DNA of 64,000 nt from Candidatus Hydrogenedentota bacterium (lineage in GTDB: Bacteria > Hydrogenedentota > Hydrogenedentia > Hydrogenedentales > SLHB01): the NCBI GenBank assembly GCA_963668025.2, contig CAXXTH010000017.1, forward strand, positions 1,440,001-1,504,000. The letters run 5' to 3'. Shown here one piece after another: positions 29,805-58,513 of this stretch. The translations under genes and the position numbers were made by a program. The notes beneath the pieces are model-generated. The model was not told the DNA's origin. It was given only the letters and a program-made list of their open reading frames with translations, and made no database searches. Position 1 is the stretch's first letter. Each line of letters starts with the position of its first letter.

Positions 29805-29928
29805 TGGTTATACCGTAAATCTTTGGGATGGAGTAACTTGCCAGGGTGGCGGCTTGCCGCCGCTCTGGTAAGCGCTGTTGGGGCGTCATTGATATTGCAT
29901 TCAGGCGATGAAAGAAGAGGGGCAAAAC

Positions 29929-30999
29929 ATGCATCAGATAACAGGGGCTAAACCGGATTTCGAGAACCTCAAGCATGTGTTGATGGGCGGGCGTGGCTGG
30001 CGCGTGCCCAATGTGGAATTGGTGATTGATGGCGCGATTAAAGCACAAATCATGGGCAAGCCGGTGGTGAGCGTTGCCGATGATCTCGAATTCCGCCGTT
30101 ATGCCGGTTACGACTATGCTTGGGTGAGTATCGGCATGGTCGATCCGGCGGGCACCGTGAATAAGGAGCTTGTGGATGCGGCTGTGGATCGGCATTATGC
30201 GGGTGAAGACGGGCGCGTATGGGCCGCTGAACATGAAGGGCGCATCTATTCCGAAGCGGACCTCGAACAATTTCCCTGGCCCAATCCGGCCACGCTCGAT
30301 TACAGTCCTTTCCTAGACACGCCTTTACCTGAAGGCATGAAATTCATTGCTATCTTGGGGAAAATCTTCACGGCCACCTGGGAACTCCTGGGCTATGAAC
30401 AATTCTGTTTGGATATGTGCATGCGCCCTGATTTCCTTAAAACGTTGGTGAAGCGAGTGGGGGATACGCAGTTGGCCGTTTTCGAACGCGTGGCGCATAT
30501 GGATTCCGTCGGCGCGGTATGGGTTCCTGATGATATCGCCTATCACACGGGGCTCATGGCTCCGCCAGACTGGCTCCGCGAACACGTGTTCTCTTACTAC
30601 CGCCAGATGGCCGAAGTCTGCCGCGCCCTGGATAAGCCGTTCATTTACCATTCCGACGGCGATCTGTGGTCTTTTCTCGACACGATACTAGACACTGGTT
30701 TCAACGCTTTGCACCCTATTGAACCGGAGAGCATGGACATCTATGCTGTCCGCGAATATGTGGGCAAGCGGATCTGCTTGATGGGCAATATTCGCGTGCA
30801 TACACTGGCGTCGGGCACGCCGGACGAGATACAGGCGCTCGTGCGGGACCGTATCGAGCATATAGGGTATGATGGAGCCTATTGTGTGGGCTCCAGCAAT
30901 TCGGTTCCGGATTACGTGCCCGTGGAGAATTATATGGCCATGCTGAAGGCCAGCGCGGAGTATGGAGCCGTGCCTGGCGCGGCGGGGAGCTGGGTGTGA
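29929..30999 (+). CDS. Uroporphyrinogen decarboxylase / MtaA-CmuA methyltransferase superfamily protein
   Basis: 'FPWPNP', 'DDIAY', 'YHSDG', 'LHPIEPE.MD', 'GSSNSVPDYVPVEN' (alternative start 29908). Confidence 0.82.
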   Translation: MHQITGAKPDFENLKHVLMGGRGWRVPNVELVIDGAIKAQIMGKPVVSVADDLEFRRYAGYDYAWVSIGMVDPAGTVNKELVDAAVDRHYAGEDGRVWAAEHEGRIYSEADLEQFPWPNPATLDYSPFLDTPLPEGMKFIAILGKIFTATWELLGYEQFCLDMCMRPDFLKTLVKRVGDTQLAVFERVAHMDSVGAVWVPDDIAYHTGLMAPPDWLREHVFSYYRQMAEVCRALDKPFIYHSDGDLWSFLDTILDTGFNALHPIEPESMDIYAVREYVGKRICLMGNIRVHTLASGTPDEIQALVRDRIEHIGYDGAYCVGSSNSVPDYVPVENYMAMLKASAEYGAVPGAAGSWV

Positions 31000-32270
31000 C
31001 GCATCCGATTGCATATATCGCGTATGGCGAGGGGCGTGTGCCTCTGGAGCTGGATCCCGCTTTAGCGGATTGGCGGGTGGTAAGCCCTCGGATGGAAGCG
31101 CCGCACGAGGAGCCCCATGCGGCATTTATCGCGGCCTGCCGCCACCCGGTGGGTTCACCGCCTCTACGGGATGTTATCCGCCCGCACGACCGAGTGGTGA
31201 TCTCGACTGCCGATGGCACTCGCCCCGTGCCGAATCGGCTGCTGATACCATGGCTTTTGGAGGAATTACCGGTTCCCACCGAACAAGTGACGGTGGTCTT
31301 GGGAACGGGCACGCACCGCCCCAATACGCCGGAGGAAATCGACGCCATTTTCGGGCCGGATGTGGCGAAAACGGTGCGCATCGTGAATCACGACGCCTAC
31401 GATCCCGCGCGCAACATCACGGTGGGGCGTACGGCCGATGGCGTCGAGGTGCGCCTTGGGCGCGATTACGTCGAGGCGGATAAGCGCATCGCACTAGGCT
31501 TCATCGAGCCCCATTTTTTCGCCGGTTTTTCGGGCGGGCCGAAGGCAGTAGCGCCGGGCGTGGCGTCGCTCGAAACCATTCTGCATTTGCATCGGTATGA
31601 GTTGATAGCCCATCCCGATAGCGTTTGGGGCGTGCTTGAAGAGAATCCACTCCACCGAACCATCCGGGAAATCGTGGCGCTTTGCCCGCCTGAGTTTTTG
31701 GTGAATGTGACGTTGAACTCTGATAAGGCCGTTACACGCGTATTCGCGGGCCATTATCTCGAAGCCCATCGCCTGGGATGCGCCTATGTGCGCGAGCAGG
31801 CCATGGCCCCTGTCGAGCGGTCTTTCCCCATCGTCGTCACCTCCAATAGTGGGCATCCACTCGATCAAAACTTGTATCAATCCGTGAAAGGCCTATCGGC
31901 GGCGGCGCGCATCGCACAAGAGGGAGGCTCGATTGTCATGGCCAGCGCCTGCCGGGATGGCATTCCCGCGCATGGCCGTTTCAGACAGATCCTGGCCGCG
32001 CACGACACCATCGAAGAGGTGGATGCCTATCTGCGGTCCCGCGCTACGCCGGAATTGGATCAGTGGCAGGTGCAAGTTCTTGTTCAAGTGCGCAAGCGTT
32101 GCGCGGTGGATATATATTCGATGCTTCCCACGGAGGATGTGGTGGCATGCAAGTTAAATCCCGTGGCGGACTTGGCGCAAGCCGTGCGGGCGCGAATCGA
32201 GGAAGTGGGAAAAGGCGCGCCAGTCGCGGTGCTGCCCGATGGCCCCATCACCATCTCTTATATTGAATAG
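30996..32270 (+). CDS. larA: Nickel-pincer-dependent lactate racemase family protein
   Basis: 'DGTRPVP', 'GTGTHR', 'NHD', 'IEPHFFAGFSGGPK', 'PLDQNLYQSVKG'; GTG overlaps the upstream stop. Confidence 0.85.
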   Translation: MTHPIAYIAYGEGRVPLELDPALADWRVVSPRMEAPHEEPHAAFIAACRHPVGSPPLRDVIRPHDRVVISTADGTRPVPNRLLIPWLLEELPVPTEQVTVVLGTGTHRPNTPEEIDAIFGPDVAKTVRIVNHDAYDPARNITVGRTADGVEVRLGRDYVEADKRIALGFIEPHFFAGFSGGPKAVAPGVASLETILHLHRYELIAHPDSVWGVLEENPLHRTIREIVALCPPEFLVNVTLNSDKAVTRVFAGHYLEAHRLGCAYVREQAMAPVERSFPIVVTSNSGHPLDQNLYQSVKGLSAAARIAQEGGSIVMASACRDGIPAHGRFRQILAAHDTIEEVDAYLRSRATPELDQWQVQVLVQVRKRCAVDIYSMLPTEDVVACKLNPVADLAQAVRARIEEVGKGAPVAVLPDGPITISYIE

Positions 32271-32375
32271 ACCGGGAACCCCAAACCGGGACCCAAAACC
32301 CGACTGTTTACCTTCTTCCATTCTTTTGATAGAATCGCTTCAGAAAGCCCGCATGGGAATTAAAGGAGCTTGGAT

Positions 32376-33059
32376 ATGATGAGAAGTGTTTTGGCGTGTG
32401 TATTCGCTGGGTGCCTGGTTGTTGTGTTGGCGGGTTGCCCGCCGGTGAACAGCGGAACCGCTTCGCTGCGGGTGATCCAGGCCAGCCCTGACGCCGTTTC
32501 CACGGACGTGGCGGTGAACCGGGTGTGTGTATTTCAGGATTTGGCCTTTGGCTCGGTCACGTCGTATACCGATCTTCAGAGCGGATTCTACGAAGTGAAT
32601 TTCCTGCCCCAAGGAAGCGATTGCTACGAGGACCCCTATCTTGCGGGGGCCTATTTTTCGACTGCCGTCGCGCTGACCGATGGCGACCAAGTCACGATGG
32701 TGTCCATGGGTAAAAAAGCGGATATGTTTCCGCTTGTGCTGGGAGGCGTTTCCTCGACGCCTGCGGCGGGCAAGGCGCTGCTGCGCGTGGTTCATGCCAG
32801 CCCCGACATGCCTAAAGTGGATGTCACGCAAATGAACGGCGGCATGCTTTTCAATGATGTGGCGTTTGAAGATGTGACGGACGTTGTTGAATTGGCTGCT
32901 GGAACCTATACCTTGCAAGTGCGCAACGAAACGAGCGCTTCGCTGTATCTCGCGGTTCCAGATGTCTTCCTTGCCTCGGGGCGCGTCTATACCGCCTATG
33001 TGATCGGCCTCAAAAGCGGCGCGCCCGCTTTACAGGTGATGCTGGTCGAAGAGAATTGA
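32376..33059 (+). CDS. DUF4397-domain lipoprotein
   Basis: Lipobox 'LAGC'; two repeats 'LRV(I/V)(Q/H)ASPD'. Confidence 0.8.
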   Translation: MMRSVLACVFAGCLVVVLAGCPPVNSGTASLRVIQASPDAVSTDVAVNRVCVFQDLAFGSVTSYTDLQSGFYEVNFLPQGSDCYEDPYLAGAYFSTAVALTDGDQVTMVSMGKKADMFPLVLGGVSSTPAAGKALLRVVHASPDMPKVDVTQMNGGMLFNDVAFEDVTDVVELAAGTYTLQVRNETSASLYLAVPDVFLASGRVYTAYVIGLKSGAPALQVMLVEEN

Positions 33060-33073
33060 TTTCTTGATCCGTT

Positions 33074-33107
33074 AGGCAAGGGGCGCTGGCTCCTTGCCTT
33101 TTTTTTT
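33074..33107 (+). terminator. Rho-independent terminator
   Basis: AGGCAAGGGGC-GCTG-GCTCCTTGCCT followed by a T run. Confidence 0.75.
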
Positions 33108-33156
33108 GAGCCATCGGCACGATGTTCGATAGGCTTATACGGCGGAGGGGGGGGGA

Positions 33157-34119
33157 GTGAGCATGACGCCACGGGAACGTTTTATCGCCGCGCTCGAACG
33201 CCGCTCTATCACCGGGCGTGCGCCTCATTTTGAATTGGTGTTTTTCCTCACGATGGAGGCCTTCGGCAAGGTGCATCCATGCCACCGGAATTACTACCAA
33301 TGGGACCAGATGTCGGAAAACGAACGCAGGCTCCAGCGCGAGGATATGGCGGACATTTACATCGCCACCGCCAAACGGTACGAGCATAGCGCTATCTTTA
33401 TCCACCCGAATCCCAACAGGGAAGACGAGGCGATGCGCCTCATTGAGGCTATCCGCGACAAAACGGGCGATACCTATTTCCTCATGATGCATGGCGACGC
33501 CACCTACTCGGTGCCCACGGGTGACGATATGATGGCGCAAGTCACGTGGTTCTACGAGCATATGGACGAAGCCAAAGAACAGGCCCAGCGAAATGTGGAC
33601 GCCATGCTCGCCGCCGCGGAGCGTTATGCGCGCCATGGCGGCCTGGACGGCTGGGCGCTTTGTTCCGATTATTGCTTCAACGATAATCCTTTTCTGAGCC
33701 CGGACATGTTCGCGGAGATCATCGCGCCGTATTTGACGCAGCTCATCGCGGGTGAACGCGAACTCGGGTTTTACGTCATCAAGCACACCGACGGCAATAT
33801 CATGCCCATCATCGAGCAACTCGTTGCGGCCAACCCCCATGCGCTCCATTCGCTTGATCCGCAAGGAGGCGTGGATATCGCCGAAGTGAAGCGGCGCTAT
33901 GGCGGCCAGGTTTGCCTAATCGGCAATGTGAATTGCGGGCAGCTCCAATCAGGTACGGAAGAAGAGGTGATCGGCTCCGCGCGCTACTGTATCCGCCACG
34001 GCATGCCCGGCGGCGGCTACATCTTTTCGACCAGCAACTGCGCCTATACGGGCTTGGCCCTCGAACGCTATGAACTCATGTGGAGAGTCTGGCATGAAGA
34101 GGCCATTTATCCCGAATAA
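33157..34119 (+). CDS. Uroporphyrinogen decarboxylase superfamily protein
   Basis: 'MTPRERF', 'CSDY', 'KHTDGN', 'LHSLDPQGGVDI', 'GGGYIFSTSN'. Confidence 0.82.
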   Translation: MSMTPRERFIAALERRSITGRAPHFELVFFLTMEAFGKVHPCHRNYYQWDQMSENERRLQREDMADIYIATAKRYEHSAIFIHPNPNREDEAMRLIEAIRDKTGDTYFLMMHGDATYSVPTGDDMMAQVTWFYEHMDEAKEQAQRNVDAMLAAAERYARHGGLDGWALCSDYCFNDNPFLSPDMFAEIIAPYLTQLIAGERELGFYVIKHTDGNIMPIIEQLVAANPHALHSLDPQGGVDIAEVKRRYGGQVCLIGNVNCGQLQSGTEEEVIGSARYCIRHGMPGGGYIFSTSNCAYTGLALERYELMWRVWHEEAIYPE

Positions 34120-34130
34120 GGGACGGCGCG

Positions 34131-35864
34131 CTATGCATGGCGCGGCGGACGGGTGGGCAGGTGGCGATAGGGCTCGGTCTCGGCGATAAGCTCGCCGTAA
34201 TACGCGCCATTGCGGCATCGCAGGCGCACGCGGCGGTGGCAAACCATGCAGGCGATCTCGGCATCCGGTTGAGCCGGTTCGGGAATGAGGATATAGGTGC
34301 TGCAAAACGGGCAGGCGATGCTGTGGCCGTTTTGCTCGAAGTAGTTCTGCCGGATATTGTCGATGGAGCCGCCGCGCAGGCATGCTTCCAGGGCCGCGAT
34401 GCATCCCGGGTCAAATTGCGCGCCGCTCATGTTCCGAATCCGGGCGATGGCCTCCTCCGGATCGAGGCCCTTGCGGTAAGGCCGGTTGCTCGTCATGGCG
34501 TCATATGTGTCCGCCACGGCGATGATCCGGCCTTCCATCGGGATCTCTTCCCCGGCAAGCCCGTATGGATATCCTTGCCCATCCCATCGTTCATGATGGT
34601 ATAAGGCGTATGGAATGAGGGGAACTAGGAAATCCACATCCCTCATAAGGCGCGCACCCCGTTCCGGATGAACCTGCATCATGGCGTATTCTTCCTGGTC
34701 CAAGCCATCGGGTTTGCACAGGATCGAGCCGTCGATAGCGATTTTGCCCACATCATGCAGCACACCGCCCATGCGGCATTCCGCGATCTTGGCCTCATCC
34801 CATCCCATCTCGCGGGCGATAGCCATGGCGAATTGCGCCACCCGCCAGGCATGGCCCACGGTGTAATGATCCCGCATCTCGACGGCGTTCGCGAGCACGA
34901 TCAGGGTGTCTTGATAGCTTTTTTCGACGCGGGCGAGGTATTGGGCGTTTCGTATGGCCGTGGCCGACGCCAGAGACAACGCCACCAGTAATTCGAGGTC
35001 GCTTTCCGTGAATGCCCGGGCGAGGCCGCGCGCATCCACATACAGCGCACCCAGAATCTCGCCCTGATGCTCGAACGGCGCGCACATGGCCGAGGTGATA
35101 TTTTGAACAATAATGCTCCCGCCTTTGCCAAAGCGTGCGTCCGTGGCGGCGTCGTCCGTGATGACCGCTTCGCCCCGCTCGACTACGCGCTGCACAATGG
35201 ATGAACTCACCTTCATTTCATGGTCAGTGGGTTCGGCCCGGATACACACTTTTTCGAGGCGGCCGCTTCCGGGTTCTTTCAATAGAATCGCGCCATTATG
35301 GGCGGGGACCAGCCGGAAAACCTGATCGAGCACCCGCTCGAGCAATTGCTTCAAATCCCGCTCGCTCGATATAATCTGGGCTGATTCGTACACAGCGGCC
35401 AGCCGCCGCTGGGCGTCCCTCAATTGCGCTGCCGTCACATTGTTTCGCTGGCTCGTGTCGAAGAAGGTTTTGTATACGCTCGAGGCGGCCGCCGCACGTA
35501 TGGCATGGCCTTCTTCCGTCTCGAAAACAGCGCCTGACACAGGCGGTGTGGATTCGATATGCGCCGGATGGATGAGTTCAAACCGAATACGCGTATCGCC
35601 AATGGCGATGACATCTCCATCCGCCAGGCGGCTTTCGACTACTTGCCTTCCGCCTACGAAGGTGCCGTTTCCGCTGCCGAGGTCGCGCAAAAAGGTGCCC
35701 GAGGGCGTTTGGCGGATCATGGCGTGGCGGCGCGACACCTGGATATCGTTAAGCTGCACACTATTCTCGCGGCTGCGGCCAATCGTGGCCGCACCCGCCA
35801 GCTCTACGATTTGGCCTTGCTGGCCGCCGGAGAGAATGACAAGGCGTTCTGCTCTCATACGCAT
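34131..35864 (-). CDS. FHA-GAF-HD-GYP cyclic-dinucleotide phosphodiesterase with C-terminal CxxC..CxxC ribbon
   Basis: FHA 'IGRS...VSRRHA...DLGSGNGT'; GAF 'SAMCAPF...GALYVD'; 'RDHYTVGH', 'LHDVGK', 'HHERWDGQGYP'; 'CPFC...CMVC'; start uncertain. Confidence 0.88.
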   Translation of the reverse strand: MRMRAERLVILSGGQQGQIVELAGAATIGRSRENSVQLNDIQVSRRHAMIRQTPSGTFLRDLGSGNGTFVGGRQVVESRLADGDVIAIGDTRIRFELIHPAHIESTPPVSGAVFETEEGHAIRAAAASSVYKTFFDTSQRNNVTAAQLRDAQRRLAAVYESAQIISSERDLKQLLERVLDQVFRLVPAHNGAILLKEPGSGRLEKVCIRAEPTDHEMKVSSSIVQRVVERGEAVITDDAATDARFGKGGSIIVQNITSAMCAPFEHQGEILGALYVDARGLARAFTESDLELLVALSLASATAIRNAQYLARVEKSYQDTLIVLANAVEMRDHYTVGHAWRVAQFAMAIAREMGWDEAKIAECRMGGVLHDVGKIAIDGSILCKPDGLDQEEYAMMQVHPERGARLMRDVDFLVPLIPYALYHHERWDGQGYPYGLAGEEIPMEGRIIAVADTYDAMTSNRPYRKGLDPEEAIARIRNMSGAQFDPGCIAALEACLRGGSIDNIRQNYFEQNGHSIACPFCSTYILIPEPAQPDAEIACMVCHRRVRLRCRNGAYYGELIAETEPYRHLPTRPPRHA

Positions 35865-36066
35865 CCCGCTATTGGGACGGACAATGCCGCCGGTTGAATT
35901 CGGGATTTTAAAAGGATCCGCACATTTCACCGTTCCCGATTCCCCGCAATCGTAACACACCACAAGCAGATGCGCAACAGCACGGCATTTTGGAAATGAG
36001 GAAGAGTTGTAATACCATATTTTGTGTCAACAATATCCTCCTACCCCCACAAATTGTAATTTTATC

Positions 36067-36095
36067 TTGACAGCCCACAAGCGGTAGTTTAGAAT
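36067..36095 (+). promoter_or_regulatory. Sigma70-type promoter for the ExeA-TPR-OPX/secretin-wzc-wzy operon
   Basis: TTGACA (36067-36072), 17-nt spacer, TAGAAT (36090-36095). Confidence 0.7.
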
Positions 36096-36200: not shown

Positions 36201-37400
36201 ATGGATGGCCGCTTGTTGCGGGATATTCAGGGCATTGAAGAGTGGATTGGCAGCATGAGGCGTTCCCCTTACGAGGCGGACGCAATACATGGATGGACCT
36301 ATTTTGCAAAGGAGGCCCTCGTGGGAGCCACACAGCCGATACCGTGGGAAGAGCGCCATACGCAGGCCAGCGCGAATGAATCCACCGACCTAGTGCTGCG
36401 TTATTTCGGCTTGCAGGAACAGCCTTTCGCCGCGACCGCGGATCCGGCGTACTTTTTTGCCGCGCGCCAGCATAAGGAATGCCTGTTCCGTTTATGGCAC
36501 TCCATTGATGAGCGCCATGGCATCACCGTGGTGTTGGGCAATTACGGCACGGGAAAAACCACCTTATTGCGCAAGCTCCTCACGGGTATGAGCGCCCAGC
36601 CGGAAAAATACAACACGGCGGTCATCGGCTCGCCTATTCCTTCCTGGACCAGTTTCTCGCTTCTTGAGAGCATCGTGAATAAATTCCAGTTACACCCGAA
36701 AGAGCGCTCGTTCGTGGAGTTCATGGAATCTTTAAACCGGTATCTGTTAAGCCGCCGGGACCGCATCACCACCTTAATCATTGATGACGCCCAGAACTTG
36801 AATAAACGCGGGCAGCTTGAATTGCTGCGCTTAGCCCAGAATCTCGAGACGCCCCAGCATAAGCTTCTCAATTTGGTATTTTTTGCGCAGCTCGAATGGA
36901 TGAACATCCTGCGCGCCGCCCCCAATTTCTACCAGCGGGTTAGCTTAACTTACACACTTGACGCATTGAGCCCGGCGGATGTGGCGGAGCTTATTGAGTT
37001 CCGGTTGCGCATGGCTGGCGGCGGCGACCGGGCGCCGCGTTTTGATGAAGGGGCTATTCACGCCATATATGCATATAGCGATGGCAGCCCGCGCGTAGTG
37101 GTCACGATGTGCCGGAATGCCCTGATTCTGGCCGCCCAGTTGCGTACGCGCCTCATTGGGCAAACAGTGATTTTGCACACGATACAGAAGACCACCTTGC
37201 CAGACCAGGAGAAGCAGGAACGAGTGGCTCAAGCTCTCGCGGCGCATCAACAGCCTGTGGCGGCGCCGGTCGCCTTTGAACAAGTTCCAGAACGAGGCGC
37301 GGGAGTAGCAGTTCAATCCAATCGAGCCCGGGCAAGCCGCATGCTGTTGAAAGCCGCCCGGGCAGGCATGGACCAGCATTTGCCAAAGGGAGATCAATGA
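36201..37400 (+). CDS. ExeA/GspA-type AAA ATPase
   Basis: 'YFGLQEQPF...DPAYFF', Walker A 'GNYGTGKTT', Walker B 'LIIDDAQNL', 'YSDGSPR'. Confidence 0.88.
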   Translation: MDGRLLRDIQGIEEWIGSMRRSPYEADAIHGWTYFAKEALVGATQPIPWEERHTQASANESTDLVLRYFGLQEQPFAATADPAYFFAARQHKECLFRLWHSIDERHGITVVLGNYGTGKTTLLRKLLTGMSAQPEKYNTAVIGSPIPSWTSFSLLESIVNKFQLHPKERSFVEFMESLNRYLLSRRDRITTLIIDDAQNLNKRGQLELLRLAQNLETPQHKLLNLVFFAQLEWMNILRAAPNFYQRVSLTYTLDALSPADVAELIEFRLRMAGGGDRAPRFDEGAIHAIYAYSDGSPRVVVTMCRNALILAAQLRTRLIGQTVILHTIQKTTLPDQEKQERVAQALAAHQQPVAAPVAFEQVPERGAGVAVQSNRARASRMLLKAARAGMDQHLPKGDQ

Positions 37401-39076
37401 CGCCGGACGAAACAGAAGATCCCGGCCTTGATGATGGCCTGCTAGAGGAACTGGACGAGATTGACGAGCATTTCGCCGCCAATATCGACGAGGATGAGCG
37501 CATCTCGAGCGGCGTGCCGAAAAGCCAGCGCTCGGGCGATATCGATTTCATCCAAATGACGGGCCTCACCAATCCGGAAACCGCCATGGAAGCGGAATTA
37601 GCGGATATTGACCCCGCAAATCCCCTCAGTTTCTACGAAAGAGGCGTCGCGGATGTGGATGTTTCGATGGCGCCTGGCGTGCTGGGAAACGCCAGTGACG
37701 CTGATGCGGAAATAATCCCCGCACCGTCGCGCCCACCCAAATCGCAGGACATGCGCGCCATGCTCTCCAAAAAACGGGAGATGCAAGAAACGTCCCAACC
37801 GAGTAAAAACGTCGCTTCTAACGAAGTGAAGCCGAATCGTTCGTTCATGCGCCCCGAGGCCGAGAAGCCTCGTCCAGAGCCTCAAGCTCCCGTTTCACCG
37901 CCGCCGGAAGCGGTTGCGCCTCCGGTTGCGAGAGAACCTGTTCCGGAGCGCCCTGCGGCAAGGCCGATGGAAACCGCTGCACAGCGGCGGGCCGAGTATC
38001 CGGCATACCGCCCAGATTATTCCGGTGACGAAGAAAGTTGGAGTCCCAGCGTTTCGGAAGAGCCGGAAAAGAAGCCGGGCTCGAGTTCCCACCACAGGCG
38101 TCGCAGTGGCGGCCGCCAATCACGTAAAATCCGCCGGATTATGATGGCGTTCGCATTGTTGTGTGTGATGCTTGCGGCGCTGTACCTGGCATTCGAGGCG
38201 CTTAAGCTTCATCTTTCATCTCCCGAAGAGCAGTTCCGCGAAGCGGCTCGCGTGGAGGCGCAAGGCGATTATATTGGCGCAGCCCAGCGGTTCAAGAGTT
38301 TTTACGACCGCTTCTCGACGCATCCGCTAAAGGCCGAAGCCTTGTTCCGCGCCGCCTTTTTGTACCAGGCTTCGCCGAAGGAGGGGGGAGCCCAGCCGCA
38401 ACGATATTATGAAGAGTCGAAGATTCTCTTCGATAAATATATACAGGAATTTCCCGCTGCTCCCAATATGCCTCGAGTACGCACGCTCATGGGCATACTC
38501 GATTATCGGCTTGGAATGTATCGGGAAGCTATAGATCAATTAAGCGATCCCAAGCTTCGGAGCGAAGATCCTGGGGCGGATTTAGCTATTTTGCGCGTGC
38601 TTGGGCGGGCATATGCCGCGATTGGGCAATATCTGGAAGCACACAGCAGTTTCTTGCAGGCGGCTTCGACGAATGGAAACTTGGCACCGGATTTGGATTA
38701 CCAAGAACTCGGCAGCATGTATATGGCCATGGCTTCGAATGCGAAATCAGGAAGCGAGGCAAATACATACAAGGAAAAAGCAATCGAATTTCTAAAACGC
38801 GCGGCCGATTGCCCAACGATCACTGCGGCGAATCAGCAAGAGATCAAGGGCAAGCTGGAGCAGATTGAAGGCAAGCCCGAAAAGCCGGATGAAGCGCCCG
38901 TTAGCGCGTCGAATGCGCCCGCCCAAGCGCCGGAGAACGCGAATCCTGCGCCTCCGCCCGTGGATACGAGCATGGAGAGCGGTAAAGCTGCGTCGGCAGT
39001 GGCTGCGGATGCCGCATCCACTGCGCCTAGCGCGCCTCCGGCTGAGGCGGCGCCCGTGAAGCCGCAAACGCCATAA
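37397..39076 (+). CDS. Single-pass membrane protein: acidic/Pro-rich cytoplasmic N-terminus, TM helix, periplasmic TPRs (BamD/CpoB-like)
   Basis: Arg-rich segment then hydrophobic 'IMMAFALLCVMLAALYLAF'; TPR-like 'GDYIGAAQRFKSFYDRFSTHPLKAEALFRAAF'; ATGA overlap with the ATPase stop. Confidence 0.75.
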   Translation: MTPDETEDPGLDDGLLEELDEIDEHFAANIDEDERISSGVPKSQRSGDIDFIQMTGLTNPETAMEAELADIDPANPLSFYERGVADVDVSMAPGVLGNASDADAEIIPAPSRPPKSQDMRAMLSKKREMQETSQPSKNVASNEVKPNRSFMRPEAEKPRPEPQAPVSPPPEAVAPPVAREPVPERPAARPMETAAQRRAEYPAYRPDYSGDEESWSPSVSEEPEKKPGSSSHHRRRSGGRQSRKIRRIMMAFALLCVMLAALYLAFEALKLHLSSPEEQFREAARVEAQGDYIGAAQRFKSFYDRFSTHPLKAEALFRAAFLYQASPKEGGAQPQRYYEESKILFDKYIQEFPAAPNMPRVRTLMGILDYRLGMYREAIDQLSDPKLRSEDPGADLAILRVLGRAYAAIGQYLEAHSSFLQAASTNGNLAPDLDYQELGSMYMAMASNAKSGSEANTYKEKAIEFLKRAADCPTITAANQQEIKGKLEQIEGKPEKPDEAPVSASNAPAQAPENANPAPPPVDTSMESGKAASAVAADAASTAPSAPPAEAAPVKPQTP

Positions 39077-39123
39077 CACTACGGCTGGGCTTATCCTGAA
39101 GGGATGGGCACAGGGAGAGGGAA

Positions 39124-40707
39124 ATGATGTCCCGCACGACACGACGGAGAATTTGGAAGCCTATGGGGCCGATGCAGCGTTTTGCAGCAGTGGTTGTGGG
39201 CTGCCTATTATCGCTTGGGGTATTTGCACAAGAGCAAACAGTCCGGCCTCAAGATTCAACGGCCAGGGAAAATGTCATCGCGCCGCGCGAGGAAGCGCCC
39301 GTAGCGAAAACGACACTCAATGCCGGAGATTTGGTGTTTGTGGACATCGCACGGCACCCGGAATTGTCCACCAGCACGCAGATCGATACGGGCGGAAGCA
39401 TTGTGCTGCCCCATGTGGGCCCGGTAAAAATCGGGGGCATGTCGGAGACGGAGGCGCAAGATGCCATCGCAACGTCGCTGCTGCGCATTTTGCGCCAGAA
39501 GCCGCAAGTGATGCTTTCCCGCAACGCCCCGGCGGTAACCGCCAATAATTTCCGCACTTCCGAGATGACGACCGAATTAATCCCGCTGCAGAACGCCAAT
39601 GCGGAAAATCTCGCCAATGCGCTCCAAGGCATGACCAGCGCGGGCGGCAATATCAGTTATGATCCCGATACGTATACGCTCATTATTACAGATACGCCGG
39701 AGACCGTGCGCAATATCATGAGTGTTGTCAATCGCCTTGACAATATGAAGAGCCTTGTCACGCAAGTGCGGATCGAGGCCAAGATTGCCGAAGTGAAAGT
39801 AAACGCCATGAAAGAACTGGGCGTTAAGTGGTTTGCTCAAGGCGATGAAGCCGGGGGCGGGTATTATCCCACGGGCGTGCAAGGCACCGGCTTGCAAAAT
39901 TTGCTCGGTACCGCGTCCGATGCGAACGCCAACGAGCAAGTCAATTTGGGCGGTGGCGGGACAGGCGGCGGCCGTTCATATGTCGAAGAAGGGCTGTTTG
40001 ACCGGCGCGTAGTGCTGCCGGTAAATGTAGGCCAGCCAGGCCAGTTTTTCTTTGGGCTTTTGAATTCGGATATCGATCTGGGCATATTGCTGAATGCGCT
40101 TGTGGCGAATGATGAAGCGGAAATCCTGGCGAATCCGAGTATTTTGGCGGTGAATCACACCAAGGCGCAAATCCGCAGCACCGAACGCTTTCCGTTCACC
40201 GAATATGGCGTGTCGGATGGGCGCGACACGTTCGGCACCAGTTTCCTCGATCTCGGGATCAAGCTGATGGTGACGCCCCATGTGCGCACCGATGATAAAG
40301 GCATTTATGTGAACCTCGAACTCGAACCCGAGGTGTCGTATCCTACGGGCAACGCCGAAGGCGTGCCCACCTATTCCGTGCGTAGTTCAAAAAACATCGC
40401 GAATGTGCGTGACAGTCAAACGCTTGTTATTGGGGGTATTTACCGCAACCAGCAGCGCAATGTGGACTCTGGTTTGCCTGGACTGCGCAAGGCTCCGATA
40501 ATCGGCCATCTGTTCTCTCATGTCGAAAAAGAGCAAAATCAGACGGAGTTGATGGTTTTCGTTACGCCGACGGTGCATGACAGCCCGGAGACGGTCACCT
40601 GGGATCGAATGTTGGATATACAAAGCGCAAGCAATGCGCCTAGCGCGAGCAGTGTGCTGAAACCGGTTCCCACTCGAGCCGTTTTACCCGAGACTCGCAA
40701 GGAGTAA
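39124..40707 (+). CDS. Fusion of a polysaccharide export (Wza/OPX Poly_export) domain with a secretin (N3 plus secretin domain)
   Basis: Signal peptide ending 'GVFA-QE'; aa about 63-132 'LNAGDLVFVDI..HPELS...IDTGGSIVLPHVGPVKIGGMS..EAQ..I...L....KPQV'; aa about 148-206 'IPLQNANAENLA...ISYDPDTYTLIITD'; 'QVRIEAKIAEV...ELGVKW', 'ILANPSI', 'DLGIKLMVTPHV', 'TLVIGG', 'LPGL..AP.IGHLF', 'TELMVFVTPTV'. Confidence 0.85.
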   Translation: MMSRTTRRRIWKPMGPMQRFAAVVVGCLLSLGVFAQEQTVRPQDSTARENVIAPREEAPVAKTTLNAGDLVFVDIARHPELSTSTQIDTGGSIVLPHVGPVKIGGMSETEAQDAIATSLLRILRQKPQVMLSRNAPAVTANNFRTSEMTTELIPLQNANAENLANALQGMTSAGGNISYDPDTYTLIITDTPETVRNIMSVVNRLDNMKSLVTQVRIEAKIAEVKVNAMKELGVKWFAQGDEAGGGYYPTGVQGTGLQNLLGTASDANANEQVNLGGGGTGGGRSYVEEGLFDRRVVLPVNVGQPGQFFFGLLNSDIDLGILLNALVANDEAEILANPSILAVNHTKAQIRSTERFPFTEYGVSDGRDTFGTSFLDLGIKLMVTPHVRTDDKGIYVNLELEPEVSYPTGNAEGVPTYSVRSSKNIANVRDSQTLVIGGIYRNQQRNVDSGLPGLRKAPIIGHLFSHVEKEQNQTELMVFVTPTVHDSPETVTWDRMLDIQSASNAPSASSVLKPVPTRAVLPETRKE

Positions 40708-40715
40708 GTGCTTCG

Positions 40716-42986
40716 ATGGCCAATGATATGACAGGGCTGGAAAAAGCTGCCTCCCAGGGCCGCGAAAATCAATTGCGGTTTCTGGTTAATGTGGTGGCGC
40801 GCCATTGGAAGCTAATAGCCGCCTCGGTTCCCGTGGCGGTTCTGGGCTATTTCTGTTTTGTCCAAGGCTACGCGCTGTTTTTCCAGCCTCCAGCGCCTGA
40901 GGTGCAATGGCGCGCCCAGACCCAGTTGGTGGTCCAGCAAGCGGAGTGGGAAAAAGAGATCTTCCGCAGCCTGGCGGGCACGCCGCTGTTCCGGGGAACG
41001 CCCACGGCGCTGGCGGGGCGCATTAGCGCGCGCGATTTGGCCGCCGATGCGGTGCATGCCATGGTTCAGGACGATCTTCTGAATGGCGGGCTGATGGGCG
41101 GCATTTTTACAGAAGAAAGCGTCGAAGCAGCCATCCAGCCTATCTCTTCTGGGTTGGAAGTCGTGCCCGAGGATGAAACGGGCGTCATCGGCGTGCTTGG
41201 AGCCGCATCGGGCCGGGAAGAAGCCCGGCGCATTGTCGATTATGCCGGGCGCAGTTTCATCGAGCGGAATCAGCGTTTTCTTTCCAATGAAGAGCAAGAA
41301 GCGCTGGACTTCGTCCATACGCAATTAAAAGAAGTAGGCCAGCGCCTGGACCAAGCCGAGAGTGATGTCTGGCAGTTCAAAAAAGAGATGGGTTTCACGA
41401 CGGGCGAACAGTATGAAACCGATTTGTCAGCGCTCTACGATGAGCTGCGCATGAACGAAGCGTCGCGCTCGGGCCTTAATGATAAGCTGCAAGAGATTGC
41501 GAATGAATTGAAGTTAAATAATGAAAAACTCCCCGAGGCCTTGGGGCAAATCAACGATGCCGTCATTACCGGTCTTCTCAATCAACTGAACACGCAGCTT
41601 CAAGAGCAGTTCACGCTGAGCGTGACATATACCCCCGAGTTTGACGATCTGAAAAACCTGCAAGCTGATATCGAGGACACGCAACGCGCTATTCTCGAGG
41701 CGGTGCGCAAGCTGGACGGAGAAGCCGATAATGGCCAATTGGTGTGGGATCGCCGCCAGTTTCTGCATTCGCAATACCGGCAATGCCAGATAGACCTTAC
41801 TTCGCTAGAGATTCGTGCGTCTACAGTGGAAACGCGCCTCGATGATATGATGAAACAATGGCCCGTACTCAGCGAAAAGCGCAAGCAGTTCGAGAGCCTA
41901 CAGCGCGCCAGTGCGCAATTCCAGAAGCAATTTGATTTGCTTGTGGATAAGAAAACAGAACTCGAGGATGCCATCCGCCGCGGTGCGGCTCCCGTCAAGC
42001 GCGGAGAGTACGTCACTGATCTAGGGATGACCAAAGGCCGGGAGTCACAGCATGGCTGGCTGGATTATTTCATAGCCGCTGTCATCGGTTTGCTGGCTGG
42101 TTTAGCGATTTCCGTTGCTTGGGAATTGAATGATACATCGATTCGAAGTGTCGAGGATGTGACGGAATATATCGGCCTTGATGTGATCGGCATGATCCCG
42201 CGCATGCAATTTGGCCGCACCTTGCGGCGGCCACGCAATCGTGGCAATTATGTGGCCATCAAAGAGGAAAGTGAAGTTGACGCCTGTATTGTGACCCAGC
42301 ATGATCCGAAATCGCCCATTTCCGAGGCTTATAGGACGCTGCGGACCAATTTCCAGTTTGCCACCATCCAACAGAAACCGAAAACTATCCTGGTGACCAG
42401 CGCCGTGCCGGGCGAAGGCAAAACCACTACCGCCGTAAATATGGCCGTCACATTCGCGGATAGCGGATTTAAAGTTCTTCTGGTGGATACCGACTTGCGC
42501 CGCCCTCATGTGCATCATGTGCTCAAAATGCAGCGCGGGCCAGGCCTTGCCGATGTGCTCCGCCAGGGCCTTGATTATCATCCTCTCGTGCGGCAGACGC
42601 GCATCAAAAACCTCTGGTCTATATCGAGCGGCCATGTGCCGCCCAATCCATCAGAGTTGATAGGTTCGGAGCGGATGCGAAATGTTATGCAGAGCATGGC
42701 CAGCCATTTCGATTTGGTCATCTGTGATGCGCCTTCGGTGCTGGTCGTGACCGACCCCGTGCTTCTGGCCACCAATGTGGATGCGGTGGTAATCGTGGCT
42801 TCCGCCACCTACGCACGCCGTGAAACGGTCTTGCGCGCCAAACGCCTGATGGAAACGGCGAAAGCCCATATTGCGGGCGTTGTGTTGAACGGCATCGACG
42901 CCACCCGCCGCCATTATTATTACTACTATTATTATTACGATGAAAGCGCCTCTGGCCACCACCGGAAACGCTGGTTCAACAGTTAA
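40716..42986 (+). CDS. wzc: Wzc-type polysaccharide co-polymerase / BY-kinase
   Basis: Two TMs around a long coiled coil; 'PKSPISEAYRTLRTN', Walker A 'SAVPGEGKTT', 'VDTDLRRP', 'PPNPSELIGS', C-terminal Tyr cluster 'HYYYYYYYYDE'. Confidence 0.93.
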   Translation: MANDMTGLEKAASQGRENQLRFLVNVVARHWKLIAASVPVAVLGYFCFVQGYALFFQPPAPEVQWRAQTQLVVQQAEWEKEIFRSLAGTPLFRGTPTALAGRISARDLAADAVHAMVQDDLLNGGLMGGIFTEESVEAAIQPISSGLEVVPEDETGVIGVLGAASGREEARRIVDYAGRSFIERNQRFLSNEEQEALDFVHTQLKEVGQRLDQAESDVWQFKKEMGFTTGEQYETDLSALYDELRMNEASRSGLNDKLQEIANELKLNNEKLPEALGQINDAVITGLLNQLNTQLQEQFTLSVTYTPEFDDLKNLQADIEDTQRAILEAVRKLDGEADNGQLVWDRRQFLHSQYRQCQIDLTSLEIRASTVETRLDDMMKQWPVLSEKRKQFESLQRASAQFQKQFDLLVDKKTELEDAIRRGAAPVKRGEYVTDLGMTKGRESQHGWLDYFIAAVIGLLAGLAISVAWELNDTSIRSVEDVTEYIGLDVIGMIPRMQFGRTLRRPRNRGNYVAIKEESEVDACIVTQHDPKSPISEAYRTLRTNFQFATIQQKPKTILVTSAVPGEGKTTTAVNMAVTFADSGFKVLLVDTDLRRPHVHHVLKMQRGPGLADVLRQGLDYHPLVRQTRIKNLWSISSGHVPPNPSELIGSERMRNVMQSMASHFDLVICDAPSVLVVTDPVLLATNVDAVVIVASATYARRETVLRAKRLMETAKAHIAGVVLNGIDATRRHYYYYYYYYDESASGHHRKRWFNS

Positions 42987-43045
42987 GCCAAGCCGGGCGC
43001 TAGCATTTCGCTTCCCCCAAAATAGCTTTTCGGGAGCTGTCGGCG

Positions 43046-44578
43046 GTGTTTTTTAATACCAACAAAGAATACCAGATCGGCCGCGGTGAAGTCGCGGAAA
43101 GCCGGGTGGAAGCGCCGTTCTTTGTTGCGCTAATGCTGGTTTGCGGGCTGCTGCTCATCTGCGCCCATCTGTATTGGCGGAATCCAGAAGTAACGCTGGC
43201 TCTTAGTTTTACTATGACGGTATTTGCCATCACTGCGCTTCGTGTTAGTTTCGGCGTCTATGTGCTGGTGTTAGGCATGCTGCTTTCGCCGGAGATAACG
43301 GCAGGTGCAGTGGGCTCCAAAGACCACGCTCTAAACATGCGCTATAACGATGTCCTTATTCTGGCCATTTTCATGGGCGTATTCGTCCATGTGGCTTGGA
43401 AAGGGCGCATGCGTTTTTGGATTCCCAGTCCCATTAATTCAGGCATTCTCGTATATTTCGGCATATGTATTCTCTCAACCTTGCTCGCTTTACGGCGAGG
43501 CTTGCCCTATTTCGATGAGATAACCGCGTTTTTCGTTCTAGTAAAAATGGTCGAGTATTACTTGATATTTTTCCTTGTGGGCAACGCGGTATCGAGTAAA
43601 GCAACCATGCGAAGGCTGTTGATTCTCTTTTTCATGACGGCGCTCTTCGTGGCGATTTATGGAATCGGACAAGTAGGCAAAACAGACCGCGTGGGAACGC
43701 CTTTCGAGTCAGAAGGCGCCGAGCCTAATACGCTTGGAGGATATCTCATGCTTGTGATGATCCTATCGTTGTCTTTATACCGGTATGCGCCTAGCCGCTC
43801 AAAAAAGGCCTTATTCCTATTGCTTTTCGCTATTGTTTTTGCACCTTTTCTCTTCACGCTTTCACGGGCTTCCTATCTTGCTTTAGTGGCCGCCATGATA
43901 GCCATGGGCATAAAAAGCCGGTCCTATTTGGTGCTTTCGATTGTGGGTATTGGCTTGTTGATATCTCCTTTTGTAATGCCTTCCGCCGTACAAGACCGAG
44001 TCAATTATACTTTTCAAAAAGGCGCTGGTGAGGAAGTCACGGTCGCGGGAAAAGACACCGGGATACAAGTCGATAAATCCACGTATGAGCGTATTTATGT
44101 ATGGAAAAAAGTTGGATATAACCTCCGTTATTTGCCGTGGTATGGCGGCGGCGTTTCGTGGGACACGGTCATGGACAGCCAATATGCCCGTGTGCTCATT
44201 GAAACGGGCCTATTTGGATTTGCTGCCTTTCTATTCATGCAATTCCGCATTCTGCGGACAACGCACCAAACGTATAAGTGGGCGGACGACTGGGTAGGCC
44301 GAAGCCTGGGACTTGCCACATTCTCTTTCACGATTGGCCTTATTGTCCACAGTTTTGGAACCATCTCTTTCCTCATTGTACGGATCATGGAGCCCTATTG
44401 GTTCCTGGTGGCGATGGCGGTCGTGGTGCGGGATAGGGCGATTCGGGACTATGTGCGGTCTAAGATGCGCCAGCGGAGTGAGGCCCCAAAAACGGCGGCC
44501 CAGCCATCCCCCCTCCCGCAGCCGGTTTTCCAGCCGGCACCGGTGCTCAGTCTTCGCAACCCAGATTATGTGGAATAA
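43046..44578 (+). CDS. Wzy polymerase / O-antigen ligase family polytopic membrane protein
   Basis: About 12 hydrophobic segments; 'R...PF....EPNTLGGYL', 'TLSRASY', 'ERIYVW', 'DSQYARVLIETGLFG'. Confidence 0.82.
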   Translation: MFFNTNKEYQIGRGEVAESRVEAPFFVALMLVCGLLLICAHLYWRNPEVTLALSFTMTVFAITALRVSFGVYVLVLGMLLSPEITAGAVGSKDHALNMRYNDVLILAIFMGVFVHVAWKGRMRFWIPSPINSGILVYFGICILSTLLALRRGLPYFDEITAFFVLVKMVEYYLIFFLVGNAVSSKATMRRLLILFFMTALFVAIYGIGQVGKTDRVGTPFESEGAEPNTLGGYLMLVMILSLSLYRYAPSRSKKALFLLLFAIVFAPFLFTLSRASYLALVAAMIAMGIKSRSYLVLSIVGIGLLISPFVMPSAVQDRVNYTFQKGAGEEVTVAGKDTGIQVDKSTYERIYVWKKVGYNLRYLPWYGGGVSWDTVMDSQYARVLIETGLFGFAAFLFMQFRILRTTHQTYKWADDWVGRSLGLATFSFTIGLIVHSFGTISFLIVRIMEPYWFLVAMAVVVRDRAIRDYVRSKMRQRSEAPKTAAQPSPLPQPVFQPAPVLSLRNPDYVE

Positions 44579-44948: not shown

Positions 44949-45086
44949 TACCCGTTTCGACTCTGCGCGATATAGATTCGTGCCCGGAGCATTTTTAGAA
45001 ATCACCGAAGGCAAGGAGCAAGAGGAAACGCCTGCTTGAACGTTTATAGGCCCACGAGAAATGATGGCGAAGGGAAACTCACGATT

Positions 45087-46106
45087 ATGCGGCGAGTGTT
45101 TCTTGTGTTTGCGTTGATCGGCATGATGACCGGCTGCGCCCGCTTGCTGCTGGGGGCAATCGCCGACAGGCCGCTGCATTGGGATTGCCAACTGCTCGCT
45201 CCTGGCGGGCGGATCGACGCCATCGCACACTTGGGCGATGGAGTCGTCGTGGCGGGGACGCGCAACCTCGAACCGGGGCTAATCTTTCGGAGCACGGACT
45301 ATGGGCGGACCTGGACGCGGACTGCCCAAGTCGATAGTGGTGAGTTTCTAGGAACCAATGTGACGTGCATTACTTCTGCAGGCGGCGGCGTGGCCTACAT
45401 GGTGGCGGGCGACGCGACCGTCTGGAAGTCGGTGGACTGGGGCAGCACGTGGGCGCGGCTGGCGCAGGTTTCGCAAAGCCCCCGTCTCGATGGCTTTCAG
45501 CGCAGCTACGCCATCGTCGCGTTGAAGACCGGCGCCGTTCTGATGAGTGATACCGGTGCAAACGGCGGGCACGTGTTCCGTTCCGAGGACGGGGGCGCAA
45601 GCTGGACTGACCTAGGAGCGGTGTCGGAGAAGCCCGTGTATCGCTTTCAGATAGTGGGTGACGGTGTGATTCTTAACGGTTGGGCAGGGCGCGTCTTTAA
45701 GAGCGTGGACGACGGGCGCACGTGGAGCGGCACAGGAAAGCTGGTTGATGCGCCGCTATATGCGACGGAATACTTGGGGAACAGCATTGTCTTGCAGGCG
45801 TCGCATACGGGCGAGGTGTTCCGCAGTATAGATAACGGCGTGAGCTGGGTTTCAGCGGGAACGGTCGCCGACCCTTCCGATGATTTTGTAGGCCTGGGTG
45901 GCGGAGCCGTCATCTGCTCGACCTACCTGGGGCGGCGGAGCATGTATCTCTCCCGGGACTGGGGGCGGACCTGGAGCGACATTGGCCCGGTTCCGACAGG
46001 CGTGGCCGAAGATAGCCTGGACCATGTGATCCGCGTCACCGGTTCTGGCGTCAATGCGGCGGTCGGCGGAACGTGGAATGGCTACATCGTCCGATTGGAT
46101 TGGTGA
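45087..46106 (+). CDS. BNR/Asp-box repeat beta-propeller protein (sialidase/YCF48-like), probable lipoprotein
   Basis: 'MTGC' lipobox-like; six 'S.D.G.(T/S)W' Asp boxes. Confidence 0.75.
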   Translation: MRRVFLVFALIGMMTGCARLLLGAIADRPLHWDCQLLAPGGRIDAIAHLGDGVVVAGTRNLEPGLIFRSTDYGRTWTRTAQVDSGEFLGTNVTCITSAGGGVAYMVAGDATVWKSVDWGSTWARLAQVSQSPRLDGFQRSYAIVALKTGAVLMSDTGANGGHVFRSEDGGASWTDLGAVSEKPVYRFQIVGDGVILNGWAGRVFKSVDDGRTWSGTGKLVDAPLYATEYLGNSIVLQASHTGEVFRSIDNGVSWVSAGTVADPSDDFVGLGGGAVICSTYLGRRSMYLSRDWGRTWSDIGPVPTGVAEDSLDHVIRVTGSGVNAAVGGTWNGYIVRLDW

Positions 46107-54194: not shown

Positions 54195-54271
54195 ATGATA
54201 ACGAAAGGTTCTGCTTCCATACACCATGTGATATGCGAATGTGGCGCGAAAAGCATGAAAGGGGATGAACC

Positions 54272-55480: not shown

Positions 55481-55511
55481 GCAGTACAACGTTTTATAGG
55501 AGGAACCAACG

Positions 55512-56723: not shown

Positions 56724-56783
56724 TGGCGGCGGCGCTCGCCGGGGAAGAGCACGGCGGAAAAAGCAATGTACTATTACTATGCC

Positions 56784-56803
56784 ATTCCCGCGAAAGCGGG
56801 AAT
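56784..56803. repeat. ATTCCC-N8-GGGAAT palindrome (dRS3/REP-like)
   Basis: ATTCCCGCGAAAGCGGGAAT. Confidence 0.55.
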
Positions 56804-56936
56804 GACGGTGGGGTGAGTTATGCGCAAGTGTCAACGACGATGCCGTGGAACCGTTTCCGGATGCGGGACGTCGTTGGGCGCGTTGAGAAGCCTTTTGAGA
56901 ACCAGAACGTGTTAGTATGATGAGGAGGAGTCGGCC

Positions 56937-58163: not shown

Positions 58164-58184
58164 TGGCGTCGGAATGCGCGAAAG

Positions 58185-58300
58185 AGGACAAGAAAGCGGT
58201 AGCAAGCTACCGCACTCCATACATGCTCTAAGTATTTCTTATGAAAGTATTTGGAGTGCGGCAGCTTGCTGCCGCTTTGGGCGTGCGGATTTCATTTGGA
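58185..58300. repeat. REPIN-like inverted REP pair, copy 2
   Basis: AAAGCGGTAGCAAGCTACCGCACTCCA...TGGAGTGCGGCAGCTTGCTGCCGCTTT; homologous to 44834-44948. Confidence 0.75.
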
Positions 58301-58513
58301 TGCGCTCTTGCGATTCCATAGCGATATCCGACTCGCCGGGTAAAGGCACGACGAAAGAAGCAATGTACTACCATGGCGCCGTTCCCTTTCGCGGTGAAGG
58401 CGTTTGGGTGAGTATTGCGAAAATGTCAACGAAGCGAGTATGGAAGCCGTTTTCCGTGGGTGGGACGCCATTAGGCGCTCAGAGCGTTTTAATACGATTA
58501 GGAGGAGCCAAAC

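Follow-up and report, generated by a model that had tools for sequence, protein, structure and literature searches.

The described outer-membrane (OM) routes for polysaccharides made by Wzy- or ABC-type pathways are the alpha-helical barrel of Wza, KpsD-type exporters, and short OPX proteins working with a separate beta-barrel. Secretins, in the textbook view, are gates through which folded proteins, pili and phage pass. We analyzed a stretch of 64,000 nucleotides from the genome of a Candidatus Hydrogenedentota bacterium (assembly GCA_963668025.2, contig CAXXTH010000017.1, positions 1,440,001 to 1,504,000; hereafter the window), where a single gene on the forward strand (39124-40707) codes for a protein of 527aa, which we call D1-secretin, joining the Poly_export (D1) domain of Wza to a secretin. 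This gene occupies the third position among five genes that run in the same direction (36201-44578), which we consider, with a probability of roughly 70%, to be the terminal polymerization-and-export module of a Wzy/Wzc-type polysaccharide, with the secretin serving as OM exit and D1 docked on a Wzc-like partner.

In E. coli, D1 is the domain of Wza that contacts Wzc: according to PMC12881504, its deletion leads to loss of co-localization with Wzc, the forearm of the helical arm of Wzc contacts D1 and mutations in this interface abolish capsule production, and four of the eight Wzc arms are enough to recruit the Wza ring. These reported experiments bear out the statement of a first-pass annotation of the window that D1 is the Wza domain facing Wzc. 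A secretin in polymer export is not wholly unprecedented, since it was reported in 2025 that slime secretion by cyanobacteria and myxobacteria needs PilQ/GspD secretins (PMC12475490). Secretins have assembly factors, GspA and GspB, of which variants are reported where GspA lacks the periplasmic part and GspB is longer (PMC9239104). Finally, by the definition given in a preprint (10.1101/2022.02.11.480155), an OPX protein must have one or more SLBB domains following Poly_export.

We scanned the D1-secretin against Pfam, with matches listed to E<=1 and gathering scores as cut-offs, and only three families were found, each above its gathering score: Poly_export (PF02563; 39304-39513, aa 61-130; 52.9 bits, cut-off 28), Secretin_N (PF03958), which represents a single N3 domain (39571-39744, aa 150-207; 53.1 bits, cut-off 28.2), and the core domain Secretin (PF00263; 40096-40575, aa 325-484; 129.7 bits, cut-off 27.5), whose match is closed by the motif TELMVFVTPTV at aa 474-484. 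No SLBB, SLBB_2, Wza_C, N0, STN or AMIN domain was detected at this threshold. The ATG start is followed by a hydrophobic stretch and then, as judged by eye, by VFA-QEQ, with a modelled helix at aa 16-31, and this N-terminus looks like a signal-peptidase-I signal. The motif VVGC (aa 24-27) was rejected as a lipoprotein signal, because it sits within the hydrophobic core and lacks conservation; six of 49 family members show a loose lipobox-like match, each time within that core. Pfam, sequence and fold therefore agree with the architecture proposed in the first-pass annotation, i.e. one open reading frame with a signal peptide, Poly_export, one N3 domain and a complete secretin core, and devoid of SLBB repeats, lipobox and Wza C-terminal helix.

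The best NCBIfam models for the D1-secretin are GspD (TIGR02517, 175.5 bits, cut-off 351.35) and PilQ (TIGR02515, 174.7 bits, cut-off 284.35), and the OPX models of exosortase type (EpsE, pepcterm_export) match weakly at aa 64-132. The alignment of 49 family sequences has invariant residues in D1, N3, core and C-terminal tail, including the triplet GGI of the core (G437, G438, I439), which aligns with VVLGGL of GspD and LIVGGIY of PilQ. Two further segments stand out. The first is a Gly-rich loop linking N3 to the core (39820-40038, about aa 233-305), modelled with pLDDT <50 and containing the invariant residues W236, E271, R284, R294 and P299, which might act as a cap, lip or gate peculiar to the family. 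The second is the family-specific C-terminal tail (40576-40704, aa 485-527), where T492, W493, D494 and E523 are nearly invariant, and which may be an S-domain-like element.

An AlphaFold2 model built from the same alignment (mean pLDDT 74.7) contains three well-modelled blocks, aa 61-133 (pLDDT 86-97) and, each with a pLDDT of about 90, aa 145-225 and aa 320-490, followed by two tail helices at 488-496 and 499-503, with low confidence past aa 499. Searched with Foldseek against the PDB, the model gave 49 matches at E<=1e-3, to the secretins GspD from type II secretion systems (T2SS), PilQ of type IV pili (T4P), InvG of the type III secretion system, pIV of phage and RcpA of the Tad system (best E 1e-16; 5zdh, 6i1y and 5wq7 among others), and, at ranks 41-49, to Wza/OPX chains. 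The N-terminal domain superposes on WzaB of M. xanthus (9n9a) over 70 columns with an rmsd of 1.2 A and 31% identity, and also matches E. coli Wza (7xfd, 2j58, 9r64). The family profile, run against solved chains, recovered GspD at E 1e-52, WzaB (9n9a) at E 1.9e-11 and Wza (2j58) at E 3.8e-8. The predicted fold of the D1-secretin is that of a secretin plus a D1 domain of the Wza/WzaB type.

The D1-secretin is a real gene family. We found 324 homologues at E<=1e-3, and all three domains are present in 119 of the 120 best, at 46-59% identity, the lone exception being a fragment of 397aa. In the phylum Hydrogenedentota, a match at E<=1e-80 is present in 49 of 100 other sampled genomes, two further genomes hold pieces of the gene at contig ends, and the distribution is patchy by family (24/36 in f1, 12/13 in f7, 0/16 in f3 and 0/10 in f5). 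The 49 family loci that we analyzed were taken from species-representative genomes, 35 of which are labelled as Hydrogenedentota, Hydrogenedentes or Hydrogenedentales, eight as Nitrospiraceae or Nitrospirales, one as Bathyarchaeia and one as Rhodothermaeota, plus four without label; we take the ten labels outside Hydrogenedentota as doubtful bin labels. The ESM Atlas, queried with the homologue P0010, returned one cluster with the set Poly_export, Secretin_N and Secretin, with 57 members, mostly Hydrogenedentota.

The junction between D1 and N3 (39500-39570) is spanned by contigs from three runs belonging to two studies: X1, which covers the whole stretch and is possibly its source, X3 (38942-39582) and X5 (39401-39611). 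A misassembly or gene-calling artefact was rejected on the basis of this coverage in other runs and of the presence of the fusion in many independent assemblies. We also observed that the contigs of run X3 break at 39582-39584 of the window, leaving dissimilar loose ends to either side, whereas those of X1 and X5 continue through, which is probably due to strain variation within that sample.

An exhaustive search with aa 55-215 identified, besides the main family, only two representatives, P0159 and P0173, in which a single stretch spans D1 and N3, both with the full three-domain architecture; 17 other proteins that were checked are ordinary OPX. P0159 and P0173 belong to a sister clade (P0173, P0277-P0281, P0270/P0159) that shares 27-31% identity with the window protein along its full length and whose members bear a Lys/Glu-rich C-terminal extension; P0277 is encoded on a contig of 75 kb and P0270 on one of 160 kb. 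In quick trees, a branch with all D1-bearing secretins on one side and 31 related secretins lacking D1 on the other has an SH-aLRT support of 99 when the D1 columns are included and of 91 with N3 and core alone. Such a topology fits a single fusion event, without being proof of it.

Scans for the genomes of the sister clade gave no placement. A metagenome scan gave three weak and unrelated loci only, and the query P0173 retrieved nothing but main-family orthologues from 101 sampled Hydrogenedentota genomes. Nor was the clade found in 201 sampled genomes from the phylum of a record labelled Omnitrophota (L103), in 401 genomes from the phylum of a record labelled Ca. Kuenenia (L096; three candidates per genome scored), or in nine single genomes, all of which are samples and not proof of absence. 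The ESM Atlas gave only a Planctomycetota-leaning lead at 0.91. As far as seen, D1-secretins are confined to Hydrogenedentota and to this one small, unplaced clade. The search with aa 55-215 also brought up P0128, a giant protein of 3491aa in which the N3 part of the query is matched by 11 stretches, i.e. repeated Secretin_N-like modules.

The four genes that accompany the D1-secretin code for two proteins upstream and two downstream. The first gene (36201-37400, forward strand) encodes a soluble GspA/ExeA-like AAA_22 ATPase (Pfam, 62.7 bits) without visible transmembrane segment. Its best NCBIfam match is TIGR03015, the XrtA/PEP-CTERM system-associated ATPase (150 bits, cut-off 324.5), which is the sole NCBIfam match at E<=1e-20 in all 20 ATPase orthologues given (of 36 found), at 136-163 bits; we take this family to be related to GspA and MshM. 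The stop of the ATPase gene overlaps by 4 nt the start of the second gene (37397-39076, forward strand), whose product, as read from the sequence, is a bitopic inner-membrane (IM) protein: its cytoplasmic N-terminus is acidic and rich in Pro, a single transmembrane segment follows at about aa 245-270, and a TPR domain lies in the periplasm at about aa 270-500. The protein has weak matches to TPR_12, YbgF and BamD-like models. It is conserved only over aa 250-500.

Downstream, and separated from the stop of the D1-secretin gene by 8 nt, as the first-pass annotation had pointed out, lies a gene (40716-42986, forward strand) for a Wzc-like tyrosine autokinase of the polysaccharide co-polymerase class 2a (PCP-2a; TIGR01007, 194 bits, cut-off 108). 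The protein has two transmembrane segments and a Walker A motif, about 400 of its residues (aa 57-458) are periplasmic, and its conserved C-terminal tail contains eight consecutive tyrosines; further NCBIfam matches to Wzc, pepcterm_TyrKin and pepcterm_ChnLen are all sub-threshold. The last gene (43046-44578, forward strand) encodes a polytopic membrane protein of the Wzy_C superfamily, a putative polymerase or ligase (Pfam Wzy_C, 26.7 bits, cut-off 31.7). Wzy_C is matched at E<=1e-3 in 32 of 35 orthologues of this protein, and its weak NCBIfam matches are a putative O-glycosylation ligase associated with the exosortase A system (PEP_O_lig_1, E 5.6e-8) and IctB (E 1.6e-7).

The arrangement of these genes is conserved throughout the family. 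When each gene is scored only in those of the 49 family loci where the flank is long enough, the TPR protein is present in 43 of 43, the ATPase in 35 of 35, the Wzc-like protein in 42 of 42 and the Wzy_C protein in 40 of 40, always in the same order and on the same strand. The homologues are therefore linked to wzc and wzy just as in the window. Flanks were scanned in 14 loci, and in most of these the gene following Wzy_C lies on the opposite strand and is convergent, so that the operon ends at Wzy_C. No pilin, GspF-type platform, GspC/PilP-type partner or other pilus or T2SS gene was seen in the operon or in the window, so that a place in a pilus or T2SS, which the first-pass annotation had named as a possible refutation of its reading, is not indicated. 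Moreover, no carrier-protein gene is conserved in the operon, and no beta-barrel gene is conserved beside it in the family loci, as judged from the flanks of the 14 scanned ones.

The comparison with Wza and Wzc (class 1 OPX of E. coli group 1 capsule and colanic acid; PDB 2J58, 9R60-9R69) reveals the same D1 fold and the same position of the gene directly beside that of a Wzc-type tyrosine autokinase co-polymerase. However, the D1-secretin lacks the SLBB domains D2/D3, the amphipathic helix Wza_C and a conserved lipid anchor, and its membrane part is a secretin beta-barrel and not an octameric alpha-helical barrel, for which reason a different number of subunits and a different pore width would be expected. 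The closest D1 in fold is that of WzaB, which belongs to the class 3 short OPX proteins that function with an 18-stranded beta-barrel (WzaX/S/B with WzpX/S/B of M. xanthus; PDB 9N9A). The principle is shared, a D1 adaptor plus a beta-barrel pore unlike that of Wza, but the D1-secretin unites adaptor and pore in a single polypeptide, and its pore is predicted to be a gated secretin multimer instead of a monomeric barrel of PgaA/BcsC type. With respect to the OPX definition as worded in the preprint cited above, the D1-secretin has Poly_export and the pairing with a PCP gene, whereas SLBB, Wza_C and the lipoprotein signal are missing.

Similarly, the D1-secretin has in common with GspD of T2SS and PilQ of T4P the N3 domain, the secretin core and the conserved GG motif, but it scores about half of the family cut-offs, has no N0, N1, N2, AMIN or STN domain, and is not accompanied by Gsp or Pil genes in its operon or in the window. 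It is therefore OPX-like at its N-terminus and secretin-like in the membrane, and a standard member of neither group. The slime nozzles of PMC12475490 are also secretins implicated in exopolymer release, but as presented there they are ordinary T2SS/T4P secretins without OPX domain or stated link to Wzc, whereas the D1-secretin has this link in its own chain; the main text of that paper contains neither Poly_export nor a fusion in this sense.

Concerning the two upstream genes, the operon has in common with GspA/GspB (ExeA/ExeB) that an AAA_22 ATPase gene, translationally coupled to the gene of a bitopic IM protein, lies directly upstream of the secretin gene. The soluble ATPase and its long bitopic partner match the described variants, as these have a GspA without periplasmic part and a longer GspB (PMC9239104). 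In contrast to GspA/GspB, we could not detect a PG-binding domain (PF01471) or the HR domain of GspB, and the partner carries TPR repeats. The operon is also a remote relative of the export core of the XrtA/PEP-CTERM system, with matches of its proteins to TIGR03015, TIGR03018, TIGR03007, TIGR03097 and TIGR03027, all below the NCBIfam cut-offs, and with no exosortase in the locus; terms for the ATPase and the export components were not found in the text of Haft 2006 (PMC1569441). Finally, of the Wzx/Wzy-dependent pathway the locus has a PCP-2a with bacterial tyrosine kinase domain and tyrosine tail, but no Wzx, initiating transferase or glycosyltransferases.

Architecture and synteny together suggest that the D1-secretin exports polysaccharide. 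In the mechanism that we propose, the Wzy_C protein would polymerize (or transfer) lipid-linked repeat units at the periplasmic face, and the Wzc-like co-polymerase would form an IM ring that measures the polymer under control of the autophosphorylation of its tyrosine tail. The D1 ring would sit below the single N3 ring of the secretin multimer, in the place taken by N0-N2 in pilus and T2SS secretins, and would dock onto the periplasmic arms of Wzc, creating a continuous path to the gated pore through which the polymer from the Wzy_C protein would leave. The ATPase and the bitopic TPR protein would act in a GspA/GspB-like manner to bring the secretin through the peptidoglycan into the OM.

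That a secretin may be the exit of a Wzy-dependent polysaccharide was already suggested in the first-pass annotation, and it still appears as the best reading, though export itself is inferred from architecture and synteny, and the operon lacks glycosyltransferases, Wzx and an initiating transferase. The accompanying phrase, a third export solution, has to be reworded, because the short OPX proteins with beta-barrel already represent a further one. We lean instead towards a fourth kind of OM polysaccharide translocon, in which a gated secretin would be plugged onto a Wzc ring via a D1 adaptor and assembled by its own GspA/GspB-like pair. A description of the Poly_export-secretin architecture could not be found in the literature searched, in agreement with the first-pass annotation, which knew of none; most subscription journals lie outside the scope of that search, as do Tables S1-S3 of the OPX survey, which might list such proteins.

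Several observations weigh against export of a Wzy-type polysaccharide. The first is one of symmetry, as the secretins in the solved entries that we matched are 12-15-mers whereas Wza and Wzc are octamers, a problem that is softened by the report that four of the eight arms of Wzc suffice to recruit Wza (PMC12881504). Second, the Wzy_C assignment is weak: the window protein is below the Pfam cut-off, a polymerase and a ligase are indistinguishable, and the family profile gave no match at E<=1 against PDB sequences. Third, every NCBIfam match apart from TIGR01007 is far below its cut-off. Fourth, the operon and its conserved flanks contain neither a glycosyltransferase nor a Wzx flippase or an initiating phosphoglycosyl transferase, and the latter two are absent from the window as well, though such genes may lie elsewhere in the genome; glycosyltransferases flank three of the 14 scanned loci, and those of the window (4382-5665 and 23474-24601) are distant from the operon.

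The genome (6.15 Mb, 24 contigs) also has a second and conventional export system. An exosortase locus on another contig (G000:C10:1320000-1332000; L107) encodes a sigma-54 activator, an OPX protein with Poly_export and SLBB (422aa), a Wzc-like protein (771aa; L107:10798-13113), a WecG transferase, two large TPR proteins and an EpsH exosortase. The Wzc of the D1-secretin operon and that of the exosortase locus are 28% identical, over the kinase domain only, and BLASTP gave no alignment between D1 of the D1-secretin and D1 of this ordinary OPX protein. As the two Wzc are alike only in the kinase domain and the two D1 domains cannot be aligned, the sequences fit the idea that the D1-secretin and its Wzc represent a private, matched and co-evolved pair.

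The presence of an exosortase in the genome and the lack of glycosyltransferase and flippase in the operon also give some weight to the first alternative, in which the module would export a glycoconjugate and not a free polymer of Wzy type. The Wzy_C protein would then be a WaaL-like or PEP-CTERM-type ligase that transfers glycan onto a lipid or protein carrier, and a wide secretin pore would be needed because the cargo, a glycoprotein or lipid-anchored glycan, is bulky. This would be consistent with the NCBIfam matches of the Wzy_C protein, an O-glycosylation ligase and IctB, and with the fact that the ATPase, kinase and chain-length parts score best with families associated with XrtA/PEP-CTERM. 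However, all these matches are far below the cut-offs, the exosortase is encoded on a different contig and has an OPX protein and a Wzc of its own, a PCP with tyrosine-kinase tail is typical of chain-length control of a polymer, and a conserved carrier-protein gene is missing from the operon. We therefore regard a glycoconjugate cargo as unlikely, although it is the most serious competitor of the polysaccharide.

A second alternative is that the D1-secretin works for a machine of T2SS, T4P or Tad-like type that secretes proteins or fibres and whose genes lie elsewhere, with Poly_export as a borrowed spacer and the linkage to wzc reflecting co-regulation. All characterized secretin families among our PDB matches indeed serve proteins, pili or phage, the genome contains six secretin matches besides the D1-secretin and many T2SSE paralogues, and a T2SSE-family ATPase gene is convergent after Wzy_C in six of the 14 scanned loci. 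Nevertheless, the T2SSE orthologue of the window genome is about 800 kb away, the operon and the window have no pilin, GspF-type platform or GspC/PilP-type partner, and N0, the domain by which secretins dock to such machines, is absent, while the order secretin-wzc-wzy is kept in every locus with enough flank and D1 contains invariant residues, all of which makes such a role improbable. Finally, the D1-secretin might be a periplasm-spanning or OM-anchoring ring for Wzc while the polymer uses another pore, as would be in line with the separate beta-barrel of short class 3 OPX proteins reported in preprint 10.1101/2022.02.11.480155 and with the conserved gate residues, and hence a channel closed at rest, but a complete and conserved secretin core would be an expensive anchor and no beta-barrel gene is conserved beside the operon, so that we give this possibility very little credit.

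If polysaccharide export by the D1-secretin is correct, the fusion would be a 'Rosetta stone' for secretins as dedicated polysaccharide exits and would support the debated reports on slime secretion. A single chain that joins a Wzc-docking domain to a secretin, always beside a Wzc and a Wzy-like gene, represents a concrete and testable case of a secretin in polysaccharide export, and it gives independent genomic support to the secretin-slime claim as made in PMC12475490. It would also raise a new problem, the symmetry mismatch and the opening of the gate by a polymer. With 527aa and two periplasmic rings only, this compact system could be a model for the coupling of an eight-fold Wzc to a 12-15-fold pore, and could show what opens a secretin gate without a piston-like pilus. 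Moreover, since the D1-secretin has Poly_export but no SLBB, surveys that define OPX by both domains miss such forms. What is new here, as we read it, is a polysaccharide export machine with a novel OM component; both constituent families are known.

Other elements of the region are less constant or fall outside the system. Upstream of the first operon gene, a promoter-like site (36067-36095, forward strand; TTGACA-17-TAGAAT) matches the consensus at 11 of 12 positions, and such sites are no commoner than in shuffled sequences. The divergent gene on the reverse strand (34131-35963) encodes a protein with FHA, GAF and HD_5 domains (Pfam), i.e. of HD-GYP type, whose best NCBIfam match, far below the cut-off, is a c-di-GMP phosphodiesterase family. 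In 23 of the 49 loci (18 of the 29 with enough flank), an orthologue stands at the equivalent position with unchanged orientation. The protein is likely a regulator and, where present, would probably link expression or activity of the system to a nucleotide signal.

Two further genes were considered as parts of the system and rejected, a BNR gene (45036-46106), which is absent beside all 49 family loci, and the T2SSE ATPase, which adjoins only six of the 14 scanned loci. In these six loci, a T2SSE-family (GspE/PilB-like) ATPase of 508-650aa is encoded on the reverse strand directly after the Wzy_C gene (L034:15249-17201, L056:15268-16905, L057:15313-16839, L061:15311-17014, L064:15339-17153 and L065:15545-17257), and the 60%-identical orthologue of the window genome is found at G000:C17:672237-673745. 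Such a neighbourhood may be particular to certain lineages, or it may point to a looser functional link.

Elsewhere in the window, two URO-D-like genes (29908-30999 and 33157-34119) flank a gene of the LarA-like lactate racemase family and a DUF4397 gene (29908-34119 in all). Finally, five tandem serpin genes on the forward strand (52983-59737), coding for proteins of 403, 402, 403, 408 and 407aa (Pfam Serpin, E 8e-91 to 6e-120), form a paralogous array that is unusual for a bacterium.

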